Assembly: GCA_000004695.1 (NCBI GenBank)
Contig: CM000154.2
Span: forward strand, 3,424,001 to 3,488,000
Length of the DNA: 64,000 nt
Direction: 5' to 3'
DNA from: Dictyostelium discoideum
Taxonomy: Eukaryota
Below the pieces are notes generated by a model, which saw only the letters and a list, made by a program, of their open reading frames with translations, ran no database searches and was not told the DNA's origin. The position numbers and the translations under genes were made by a program. How positions within the stretch are numbered: position 1 is the stretch's first letter; the number at the start of each line of letters is the position of its first letter. Of this stretch, positions 36,667 through 47,204 are shown in pieces.

Positions 36667-39360
36667 ATGTCTGAAAATTTTAATAATGTAATAGTTATAT
36701 CAGATAATGAAGATGATATTAATAATAATAATGATAATAATAAAAATCAAATAGTAATGAAAAAGGAGGAGATAGTATTTTGGAAAGTTTTTAGAAACAT
36801 TGTTTTAAAAAAAAAGATATTCGAAAGTATTAAATCAAACTATATTAGATATGAAATAAAGAAATATGATGAAATAGTTAAAGTAGAATGGATGATTAAT
36901 AATGGTTATATTGGTTTATTAAGAGATAAGGTTAGAATTGCATTTAGACCATTACAATTCTTGTTTGGTGATGATTTTAGTCATTTCAGTGCAGATAATC
37001 GCCACATGAATCCCAGGGATCTTTTCTCACCAAATCGATTCAATAATTTTAGAATTATAAATTCCAGTGATGAAATTAGAGAAAAGTTTAATATAGAAAG
37101 TTTTAGATTTATTTCGATAGATTATTCAAATCATTTTTTTAATGTAATTAAAGAACCAACTGAAGAAAACTATATATTCTATGAACAATTATTTTCAAAC
37201 TATCCAGAATACTTTCAAACATCAATAGATGAAACATTTTATATAATCACAGAATACGATTGTATGATTGCATTAAAAGTTTTAGTAGAAAAGTTTGACT
37301 ACTCACCAAGTGGTAGAATGTTTCAAAGATGTATTGAAATTGGTTCTTTCAATTGTTCAACTTATTTAAATCAAACATTTGAAATACCATTAAATAACAT
37401 CACTCAATATTGGAATGAAATGTTTTATAATGAATCTCATCAAGCTTCAATTTCAACACCAAATGTAATCAATGAAAGAGTTGGTTACTTAATTAAAAAC
37501 ACAGGGAATAATAATAGTAGTAATATACCAAGTTTACCAAGTGAATTTAGATTAGGTCATTTATTTTATTGTATTTTAAATGAAATTAAATTAAAAACTT
37601 TATTAGAATGTATTGAAACAATATTACTATTATCAGAACAATCAAAAGAGTTTATTGAATCAATTTCATTAAATAAATATAAATCATCCAAAAAAGGTGA
37701 TTTAAGTAATTCAAATATTATAGAATACTTTTATAAAGAATTTAAAGGTATTCCAATGTTAACAAGAGAAGAAATCAATGAAATGAAATTTACAAATGAC
37801 GAACTAAATATAGAAGTATGTCAATTCAGTAGCGATAATCAATCGATTCAAAAACTATACGAAATGGTATTATTATTTACATTACCATCAAATTTACAAG
37901 AGAATTTTCAATTTTATCAATTTAAATATCATTATGGTAAATCAAATTTAACAACAACTCCATCAAACCAAACATTAAAATTCAATTGTATACAATTTGG
38001 TATATATGACGAGAAATCAATTGATTGGGTTATACCTAATTTTGTTGCTCAAAAACGTGAAATTTTCAAATTTTGCAAGAATGATACAAATAAAATGACA
38101 GAATTTATAATGTCCCTTTATAAGAATAATAAATTAGAATGGCTTGTAGCACTTTTAGTAAAACGTACTTTACATTTTCCTTCTAAAAACATTTTGAGGA
38201 TTAATTATAAAATTCTTCAAATCATTTCAAACAATGATGAAATTCTTGATAAAATTAACAATTTAGAAAGGGCAATGCAAAATTGGGGCCGTATGCTAAT
38301 TATCTACAAATATATTAGCATAACAGAAAAAGAATTTCATTCTCTTTATAACATTCACAGTAAATTTACACATGATGATCAAGTAATTTTTCAATTGCTA
38401 TCTATTACAGAATTCAATTTAATTGAATATTTTAAATCAAATCTTATTTTTTATAATAAGTTGGTCAATTATATTTCATCATATTTTAAATTTCAATATA
38501 TGTCGAAAATTCATTTAAACCATATCTTTGTTAATAGGGGAGACGAATTTAAATTTGTAAAAAATAGTTTCGAATTCTTCTTTTATGTAGCATTTTTTCA
38601 ATTCACTCAATCCAAAAATAAATTTTCTTTTGAAATTAGTACAGACAAACCTATCCCTTCGGGTTTTGATGGTGTTTCATTAAAAACTAAAATTAAAATG
38701 TTGCATTGGCTAGTTGAAAATTTAACAAATGAAGAATTATCCTCAAATTTTATTTATTTACTTAAAGATTATTTAACACCACATGATCTTTTATTATTTC
38801 AATTTATTTTATTGCTACATAATAAAAATAATAATAATAATAATTTAAACTATAATGAAAGTAAAGATGGAAATCAAGGAAATATTAAATTAAAAGAATT
38901 TTTTATTAAATCAAATAAAAGTAATATGAATTATGTTTTTCAGTATATTGGTATTTTTGGAGATTTAGAAGTATTATCAATTATAATGGAAAGTTTATTC
39001 CCAACTATTGAATCATCAATTGATCATAGACATTTAATTTATGAAACATTAACTGAAGCAGTTTTAGAAGGTAGAATTAATATTTTCAAATTTTTAAATG
39101 AAAATTATTCATTCGTTTTCCAAACAAGTACATCTGTTGTAGGGAACGATAATCCATTAAAAAAGATAACAACCTCTCGATTACAATTTTTATTAACTTT
39201 ATCAATTGGAAAAGGTGATATTCATATGACTCAATATTTAATATCAGATTTAAAATTATCATACTCTCCCAAAAAAATTAGATATTCAAAAGATAACACT
39301 TGGTTAATTAATTATTATAAAATTGATAAAGTTATTAATCCATTGAAATATAAAAATTAA
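36667..39360 (+). CDS. Protein of unknown function, member 1 of a lineage-specific family. It is a paralog of the 44286..47204 gene.
   Basis: 897-aa intronless ORF. Its N-terminal ~440 aa and C-terminal ~160 aa are near-identical to the downstream paralog, e.g. QIVMKKEEIVFWKVFRNIVLKKKIFESIKSNYIRYEIKKYDEIVKVEWMINNGYIGLLRDKVRIAF and …GDIHMTQYLISDLKLSYSPKKIRYSKDNTWLINYYKIDKVINPLKYK. I recognise no known domain. Confidence 0.7.
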   Translation: MSENFNNVIVISDNEDDINNNNDNNKNQIVMKKEEIVFWKVFRNIVLKKKIFESIKSNYIRYEIKKYDEIVKVEWMINNGYIGLLRDKVRIAFRPLQFLFGDDFSHFSADNRHMNPRDLFSPNRFNNFRIINSSDEIREKFNIESFRFISIDYSNHFFNVIKEPTEENYIFYEQLFSNYPEYFQTSIDETFYIITEYDCMIALKVLVEKFDYSPSGRMFQRCIEIGSFNCSTYLNQTFEIPLNNITQYWNEMFYNESHQASISTPNVINERVGYLIKNTGNNNSSNIPSLPSEFRLGHLFYCILNEIKLKTLLECIETILLLSEQSKEFIESISLNKYKSSKKGDLSNSNIIEYFYKEFKGIPMLTREEINEMKFTNDELNIEVCQFSSDNQSIQKLYEMVLLFTLPSNLQENFQFYQFKYHYGKSNLTTTPSNQTLKFNCIQFGIYDEKSIDWVIPNFVAQKREIFKFCKNDTNKMTEFIMSLYKNNKLEWLVALLVKRTLHFPSKNILRINYKILQIISNNDEILDKINNLERAMQNWGRMLIIYKYISITEKEFHSLYNIHSKFTHDDQVIFQLLSITEFNLIEYFKSNLIFYNKLVNYISSYFKFQYMSKIHLNHIFVNRGDEFKFVKNSFEFFFYVAFFQFTQSKNKFSFEISTDKPIPSGFDGVSLKTKIKMLHWLVENLTNEELSSNFIYLLKDYLTPHDLLLFQFILLLHNKNNNNNNLNYNESKDGNQGNIKLKEFFIKSNKSNMNYVFQYIGIFGDLEVLSIIMESLFPTIESSIDHRHLIYETLTEAVLEGRINIFKFLNENYSFVFQTSTSVVGNDNPLKKITTSRLQFLLTLSIGKGDIHMTQYLISDLKLSYSPKKIRYSKDNTWLINYYKIDKVINPLKYKN

Positions 39361-39473
39361 CCAGTGCAAGAAAATAATTAAAAAAAAAAAAAGAAAAAAC
39401 AAAAAACTAATCAAAGTGTTCTTTTTTAATTGTTAAACAAATAATAAAAATAAAAAAAAAAAAAAAAAGTAAT

Positions 39474-39514
39474 ATGAAATTAATTTTTTATTTATTTCTT
39501 TGGTTGGTATGTAA
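39474..39514. repeat. Conserved ~45-bp element, copy E1. It lies 3' of paralog 1, follows a poly-A tract, and has a second copy at 43781..43823.
   Basis: aaaaagtaatATGAAATTAATTTTTTATTTATTTCTTTGGTTGGTATGTAA, compared with aaaaagtagaATGAAATTAATTTTTGTTTATATCTTCTTTGTTTGGTGTAAAA at 43771..43823. Confidence 0.6.
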
Positions 39515-46631: not shown

Positions 46632-46675
<44 letters not shown>

Positions 46676-47204
46676 TAATAATAATAATTTAAACTTGAAT
46701 AACGAAAGTGAAAATGAAAATGAAAGAAATATTAAATTAAAAGAATTTTTTATAAGATCAGATAAAAATAAAATGATATATATTTTTGAATATGTTGGTA
46801 TTTTTGGAGATTTAGAAGTATTATCAATTATAATGGAAAGTTTATTTCCAACTATTGAATCATCAATTAATTATAGATATTTAATTTATGAAACATTAAC
46901 TGAAGCAGTTTTAGAAGGTAGAATTAATATTTTCAAATTTTTAAATGAAAACTATTCTTTCATTTTCCAAACAAGTAGATTTTCAACAGTAAATAAAAAT
47001 CCATTAAAAAAGTTAACAACCTCTCAATTAGAATCTTTATTAATTTTATCAATTGGAAAAGGTGATATTCATATGACTCAGTATTTAATATCAGATTTAA
47101 AATTATCATACTCTCCTAAAAAAATTAGATATTCAAAAGATAACACTTGGTTAATTAATTATTATAAAATTGATAAAGTTATAAATCCATTAAAATATAA
47201 ATAA
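44286..47204 (+). CDS. Protein of unknown function, member 2 of the same lineage-specific family as 36667..39360. It has an extra N-terminal SAP-like motif.
   Basis: 972-aa intronless ORF. The N-terminus MSEKDIIFEDVEKETTKEIKKVAKSLQLSDKGDRHSILNRIKEKLLK resembles a SAP (LxxLxVxxLRxxLxxRGL) helix-extended-helix. The rest is colinear with paralog 1, with about 95% nucleotide identity over 44520-45830 versus 36745-38060. A poly-Asn insert lies near aa 780. Confidence 0.7.

Follow-up and report, generated by a model that had tools for sequence, protein, structure and literature searches.

Interlocus gene conversion and concerted evolution are known from tandem gene clusters, among them plant nucleotide-binding leucine-rich repeat (NLR) clusters, of which RPP8 is one (PMC6771003), and conversion between segmental duplications has been modelled (PMC4132178). 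Here we describe a tandem locus with a comparable history in Dictyostelium discoideum. The window, that is, the whole 64,000-nucleotide stretch analysed (assembly GCA_000004695.1, contig CM000154.2, positions 3,424,001 to 3,488,000, forward strand), belongs to chromosome 5 of the laboratory (AX4-type) lineage and carries two colinear paralogs, copy A, which corresponds to the gene DDB_G0289937, and copy B, and their similarity is a mosaic of homogenised and strongly diverged blocks. A and B are members of an array, and we consider it highly probable that the mosaic arose by gene conversion and/or unequal crossing-over among tandem paralogs. In the literature on DDB_G0289937, on gene conversion or copy-number variation in Dictyostelium and on long-read strain assemblies we found nothing on this locus.

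Block structure and silent-site divergence of copies A and B

The comparison covers three haplotypes only: that of the window and those of two loci found by exact look-up of homologous proteins, L002 in strain ACTFIR and L003 in strain ACTFIW, both labelled D. discoideum. The two genes, with the lengths of their open reading frames (ORFs) in amino acids (aa), their homogenised (H) and diverged (D) blocks, with nucleotide (nt) identity and synonymous divergence (dS), and two tracts within them are as follows.

36667..39360, plus strand: copy A (DDB_G0289937), intact 897-aa ORF, first array member; orthologs R1 (L002) and W1 (L003)
44286..47204, plus strand: copy B, intact 972-aa ORF, last array member; orthologs R4 (L002) and W5 (L003)
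A 36748-36936 / B 44526-44714, plus strand: H1, homogenised; 97.9% nt identity, dS 0.10; AX4_A and AX4_B are sisters in the block tree
A 36937-37110 / B 44715-44885, plus strand: D1, diverged; 73.7% identity, dS 0.70; outlier lineage A
A 37111-38001 / B 44886-45776, plus strand: H2, homogenised; 94.2% identity, dS 0.15
A 38002-38859 / B 45777-46706, plus strand: D2, diverged; 67.0% identity, 144 gap columns, dS 0.62 (indel-rich alignment), ratio of non-synonymous to synonymous divergence (dN/dS) 0.62; outlier lineage B
A 38860-39357 / B 46707-47201, plus strand: H3, homogenised; 90.8% identity, dS 0.14
37440..37567, plus strand: conversion tract in A, 128 nt identical to B 45215-45342
46632-46688, plus strand: poly-Asn tract of B, 19 N; the A counterpart is 6 N at 38827-38844

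Copies A and B align colinearly (tblastn, 70% amino-acid identity; blastn, 82% nt identity over 36739-39354 versus 44517-47201), and each ORF contains its terminal stop only, staying open over 2.7-2.9 kb of 78% A+T sequence. Differences between them are clustered, as none of 2000 permutations reached the observed variance of the 150-nt window counts. A sequence-only reading of the window had already described two open, colinear genes with a highly identical 5' part of ~1.3 kb, a highly similar 3' part of ~0.5 kb, a strongly diverged middle third and a poly-Asn insert in the second copy, and had extended the unevenness to synonymous sites. The 3' part (H3), the diverged yet open middle (D2), the longer poly-Asn tract of B and the silent-site contrast between blocks all agree with that description. 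The 5' part is likewise a homogenised block, but it is interrupted by a diverged patch of ~175 nt, D1, which had gone unnoticed, and the single diverged region of the earlier description becomes two cassettes with different outlier lineages. The poly-Asn tracts themselves are hypervariable, those of the ortholog R4 being several times longer than that of B.

The evidence for exchange begins at silent sites. In block order H1-D1-H2-D2-H3, the dS between A and B runs 0.10, 0.70, 0.15, 0.62 and 0.14, and among codons for identical amino acids 5.7% differ silently in the H blocks versus 19.3% in the D blocks (Fisher p=1.4e-6). Between strains, ortholog dS is roughly even: all blocks of both genes fall at ~0.06-0.18, and the neighbouring gene gives 0.07. 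Thus, the contrast between A and B reflects different coalescence times, about five-fold apart, and not constraint.

Constraint alone, with no exchange, would require that the ends of the protein form an essential folded core while the middle and a loop drift freely, and the predicted structure does place the blocks in this way. D1 falls in a low-confidence predicted loop (pLDDT, the per-residue model confidence, is <50 at aa 102-152) that is predicted to be disordered. D2 is where the model is least confident and the family least conserved. H2 forms the best-predicted helical core of the protein, which is modelled best across H2 and H3. However, such a history would not produce the contrast at silent sites or among codons for identical amino acids, the H blocks do not have a smaller ortholog dS than the D blocks, and the incongruent block trees and the paralog-derived tract described below also stand against it. 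We regard constraint alone as very improbable.

The genealogies of the blocks disagree. In quartets of A, its ortholog, B and its ortholog, 100% of the informative sites in D1 and D2 are of the orthology type; in the H blocks informative sites are few and mix all three patterns. The tree of H1 joins AX4_A and AX4_B as sisters, that of D1 has the A clade as a long-branch outlier, and that of D2 has the B clade as outlier, while the H2 and H3 trees are shallow with orthologs still weakly clustered. Paralog states also occur within a tract. Using 319 diagnostic sites, defined as fixed differently between the A orthologs and the B orthologs of the other strains, we find ~8 consecutive B-type states in A at 37444-37541 that are not present in R1 and W1, and the tract around them, 37440-37567, marks a conversion that took place recently on the way to the lab strain. 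Another perfect match between A and B measures 152 nt (37249-37400 = B 45024-45175), and the 99th percentile of runs simulated at H-block divergence reaches 143 nt. The locus thus combines uneven paralog dS, incongruent segment trees and paralog states within a tract, which characterise interlocus gene conversion; the suggestion of conversion or recombination in the sequence-only reading is upheld by the ortholog control, the block trees and the tract.

A strain-variable array and its history

Between identical flanking genes, a Tau95-like gene upstream and a 1709-aa gene downstream that are common to the three haplotypes, there are two family copies in the window, four in L002 and five in L003, arranged head-to-tail. 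The locus is therefore a tandem array of variable copy number, of which A and B are the first and last members. The sliding-window nt identity of A to R1/W1 is 91-98% and that of B to R4/W5 is 95-99% over the full length. Outer copies are intact in L002 and L003; among the inner copies R3 is intact, and R2, W2, W3 and W4 contain stops or frameshifts. A family profile compared with all six-frame ORFs of the window matches A and B only. The remaining parts of the array are listed here.

39569..44055, no strand: lab-lineage-specific spacer, standing where other strains have inner array members and 153/166-aa genes
39581-41887, minus strand: Ricin-B lectin gene inside this spacer, 768 aa
42630-42980 (longest ORF), minus strand: small gene in the spacer, annotated as 174 aa in L004
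L002 5167-5628, 8703-9203, 12494-12955 and 13216-13716, minus strand: small genes of ~153 and ~166 aa
L003 3415-3876, 4167-4670, 8131-8592 and 8862-9368, minus strand: small genes of ~153 and ~166 aa

The sequence-only reading had taken the locus for a segmental duplication, with two copies flanking a lectin gene. The identification of the lectin was correct (Ricin_B_lectin, Pfam E-value 2.8e-14); the duplication is of another kind. Similarity between A and B starts after unrelated N-terminal modules (24 codons in A, 77 in B) and stops at the stop codon, blastn similarity outside the ORFs is confined to low-complexity matches, and the flanks are unduplicated, so the homology is coding-only and does not reach the flanking DNA as it would in a segmental duplication. 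Moreover, the lectin gene is absent from this locus in L002 and L003, where the array has four and five copies. Orthologous flank extends only ~200 bp past the stop of A (39368-39568, orthologous to the R1/W1 flanks) and ~230 bp ahead of the start of B (44056-44285, orthologous to the R4/W5 flanks), and the ~4.5 kb between them is specific to the lab lineage, parts of 43.1-43.9 kb bearing a weak resemblance to inter-copy spacers. No tRNA genes that could suggest TRE-type retrotransposon targeting of this insert were found in the window. In the lectin (39581-41887, minus strand) the ricin-type match is limited to approximately residues 52-219 (Pfam Ricin_B, ebulin B chain), and the C-terminal ~500 residues have no match.

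In L002 and L003 the array copies are interleaved with the paralogous 153-aa and 166-aa minus-strand genes, one or two per array unit, which are mutual paralogs with the common motif NVGVVDGKTVRLCNNTNEY; Pfam gives no match to them, and the whole window lacks a counterpart. The ACTFIR array also contains an unrelated 475-aa gene model (L002 6391-7855, plus strand) with a hydrophobic N-terminus and an Ala/Gly/Val-rich C-terminus, which matches nothing in Pfam and occurs neither in the window nor in L003.

The broken inner copies raise the question of whether a decaying pseudogene copy, or an assembly artefact of mis-joined or collapsed repeats, could underlie the mosaic. It is also true that B-type proteins, even the annotated R4 and W5 products, are not among the matches listed in protein searches, although their lack among the matches listed for the search with B is no evidence that B is unannotated. 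Neither possibility seems to us credible. The two ORFs stay open over 2.7-2.9 kb, each of the other strains has an unbroken B ortholog, and ortholog dN/dS lies at 0.23-0.44. The same strain lineage has been assembled a second time, independently (GCA_054883475.1). In that assembly 22.3 kb around the locus align with 0 mismatches and 7 gaps, and products of 897 and 972 aa are annotated; the mosaic pattern is therefore not an assembly artefact.

Taken by gene, A has an ortholog dN/dS of 0.41-0.44 and B one of 0.23-0.24, compared with 0-0.06 for a flanking gene, and no block exceeds 1 in either A-versus-B or ortholog comparisons. These values suggest that the family evolves fast under weak purifying selection, which acts on both survivors, and therefore both A and B are probably functional. 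It seems improbable that the array serves in conflict or recognition as a fast-evolving locus polymorphic among strains. On that view D1 and D2 would be specificity determinants kept distinct by selection, the 153/166-aa genes functional partners and the lectin haplotype swap functionally meaningful.

We propose the following history. The A and B types would have split long ago, and D1 and D2, with a silent divergence of ~0.6-0.7, would have kept that history. H1, H2 and H3 would have been repeatedly overwritten by non-allelic gene conversion and/or unequal crossing-over among members of a head-to-tail array whose copy number varies between strains, such that in these blocks paralogs within a genome are now about as similar as orthologs between strains. 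D1, within a disordered loop, and D2, within the middle part where conservation is weak, would have escaped, probably because sequences so divergent and so interrupted by indels can no longer form heteroduplexes, and selection for keeping two types may also have helped. In the lab lineage, the inner members are missing, with a 4.5-kb lectin-bearing segment between the two survivors. Most of the homogenisation is about as old as the strain split, since H2 and H3 retain a weak clustering of orthologs, and the demonstrably recent tracts are short only.

The inner copies bear on a different order of events, in which A and B would be young duplicates (dS ~0.1 throughout) and D1 would have been imported into the A lineage, and D2 into the B lineage, from a far-diverged family member, a lost array member or another locus. 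Each diverged block does have a single outlier lineage, with the other lineage grouping with the inner copies, and N-terminal modules have been swapped between copies, as in W3, which joins a B-type N-terminus to an A-like middle. Yet the 60 collected family proteins include no candidate donor, the D1 and D2 segments of A and B matching the A/B subfamily only among them, and the inner copies are intermediate in D2 (63-88% identity to A), which fits a graded escape from homogenisation. We find such an import unlikely; its mechanism would still be gene conversion, differing from our preferred history in direction and donor alone. W3 itself (P0004; L003 9962-12855), with the B-type SAP-like N-terminal module and split into two ORFs, is a further recombinant within the array.

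Several points weigh against homogenisation by exchange within the array as we have set it out. The pairwise homoplasy index (PHI) test (p<0.001) and the Hudson-Kaplan minimum number of recombination events (Rm of at least 58) both indicate recombination, but recurrent mutation in 78% A+T DNA possibly inflates them, and the dS of D2 rests on an indel-rich alignment. The homogenisation is for the most part no younger than the strain split, so that the 'ongoing' conversion of the sequence-only reading stands as far as a few short recent tracts go and does not extend to the bulk of the H blocks. Finally, with three haplotypes compared, either array contraction with lectin gain in the lab lineage or the reverse may have taken place.

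The strains themselves deserve comment. The flanking gene at 47284-52413 (minus strand) is perfectly conserved, and its silent divergence from L002 and L003 is ~0.07; ACTFIR and ACTFIW are therefore quite diverged from the lab lineage, more so than we had anticipated within one species. On the other side of the array, two long ORFs upstream of A (557 and 297 aa; 33434-36110, minus strand) are annotated as one 865-aa gene in the newer assembly. That gene carries Tau95 and Tau95_N domains (TFIIIC subunit), and its 297-aa part is ~90% identical between strains, the downstream gene being 100% identical.

The protein family and its domains

DDB_G0289937 of strain AX4 is identical to copy A, minus 26 in-frame residues spliced out in the reference model. 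The AX4 model (871 aa) removes a 78-nt GT...AG stretch, 38380-38457, as an intron. This stretch is in frame and is kept as coding in the other strains, in copy B and in the whole family (FN.IEYFK), and the intron is probably spurious. The G+C content of the window is 15-31%, and its coding sequences include tracts of poly-Asn and poly-Gln.

In a search of 5.8e9 clustered proteins, all close relatives among the matches listed are from this locus in D. discoideum, together with two distant paralogs at ~27% identity, and no member of the A/B subfamily from outside this locus or outside D. discoideum is among the matches listed. A profile search of 1.84e9 representative proteins gave 51 relatives, many aligned end to end and 700-900 aa long. 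All 10 of the relatives looked up are dictyostelid, coming from D. discoideum, D. cf. discoideum, D. citrinum, D. firmibasis, D. purpureum and Polysphondylium violaceum. These matches indicate a dictyostelid-specific, uncharacterised family of predicted all-helical repeat proteins of ~800-900 residues, which agrees with the earlier surmise of a lineage-specific family. One of the relatives looked up, DDB_G0284967 (Q54NV7, UniRef 'Ankyrin repeat protein'), aligns with the family profile end to end over ~800 positions, and its family has in common with A and B the N-terminal motif FWKVFRN..L...IF, the motifs EWMI.NGY and ALKVLVE and C-terminal helix-pair repeats of the type G-x-hydrophobic, although its identity to A and B is 22-25%. 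The features that bear on domain assignment are these.

38929..39249, plus strand: three degenerate ankyrin-like helix-pair repeats of A (aa 755-861), IGIFGDLEVLSIIM, AVLEGRINIFKFL and SIGKGDIHMTQYLI
46776-47096, plus strand: the matching three repeats of B, the same as A aa 755-861
44286-44525: B-type N-terminal module, common to B, R4, W5 and W3; absent from A-type and other inner copies
44328..44438, plus strand: SAP-like motif of B (aa 15-51), sub-threshold, in this module
36688-36717: VIVISDNEDD in the A-type N-terminus (A aa 8-17); VIVISDDED in R1 and W1

The sequence-only reading had seen no known domain, and at Pfam thresholds this is so. No Pfam match above threshold was obtained on A or B, B having a chance-level match to DUF4834 (E 0.28) and A none; none of the Ank models reaches its gathering score on either protein, and full-length searches give none at E<=1. 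Profile and fold comparisons nevertheless suggest degenerate ankyrin repeats. Compared with PDB sequences, the family profile matches FEM1B/C and NRARP only (E 0.03-0.17), hhalign aligns A 795-860 with a designed ankyrin protein (E 0.016), and the family member P0016 has sub-threshold Ank_2/3/4 matches in the homologous region (Ank_2, 21.9 bits versus a cut-off of 27.3). In addition, Ank_4 matches a C-terminal fragment of A at E 0.18. Because three independent weak signals converge on the three C-terminal repeats, we call A and B ankyrin-like: they appear consistently as degenerate relatives of ankyrin repeat proteins and not as demonstrated members of Pfam Ank. What speaks against the assignment is that these signals, consistent as they are, are each sub-threshold or moderate. 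Further, unlike those of ankyrin repeat proteins, the repeats of A and B are irregularly spaced (37 and 48 residues), and most of the ~900 residues match generic alpha-solenoids only. Foldseek against PDB returned no match at E <= 0.001, its hits being such solenoids at template modelling (TM) scores of 0.1-0.2, and a first AlphaFold2 (AF2) model from 7 sequences was unusable (pLDDT 43). Matches to a loose regular expression describing ankyrin-like helix pairs exceeded those in shuffled sequences for A, and with less clarity for B; the expression was too permissive to serve as evidence and was set aside.

The SAP-like motif attributed to the second copy is present as a pattern at B aa 15-51, but it scores below the SAP cut-offs. 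Like the SAP domain (PF02037, PF18953), this stretch fits the two-helix pattern L..L..G.[KR]..[LI][LI].R[LI], and both models pick it; unlike the domain, it reaches 14-16 bits where 24-26 are needed (SAP_new25, 16.2 versus 26.3 bits; SAP, 14.3 versus 23.9 bits), and it is undetected in the related N-terminus of W3/P0004. We treat it as a sub-threshold hint. The VIVISDNEDD segment of the A type may resemble a SUMO-interaction-type motif, in which Ser and an acidic stretch come after a hydrophobic core. We infer that A and B would most likely act as protein-binding scaffolds, the B type having an extra N-terminal module with its weak SAP-like motif.

Comparison with described tandem clusters

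The locus offers a clean and well-controlled example of concerted evolution in Dictyostelium, of an ordinary kind that is well known in other systems, and by itself it opens no new biological question. It assigns the orphan DDB_G0289937, along with the paralog next to it, to a dictyostelid-wide family that appears to be degenerate ankyrin-like, and it reveals structural polymorphism between strains, with 2, 4 or 5 copies and the lectin gene present or absent. This is of help to annotation, for example for the probably spurious intron of the reference model, and it matters when AX4-type strains stand in for natural D. discoideum.

The array differs from NLR-type tandem clusters in its host, a social amoeba, in belonging to an uncharacterised family and in showing no sign of diversifying selection, as dN/dS is below 1 in every block for A versus B and for orthologs, and its comparison extends to three haplotypes. 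As in NLR-type clusters, homogenised tracts form a mosaic with refractory diverged segments, copy number differs by haplotype, inner copies decay and the trees of different segments are incongruent.

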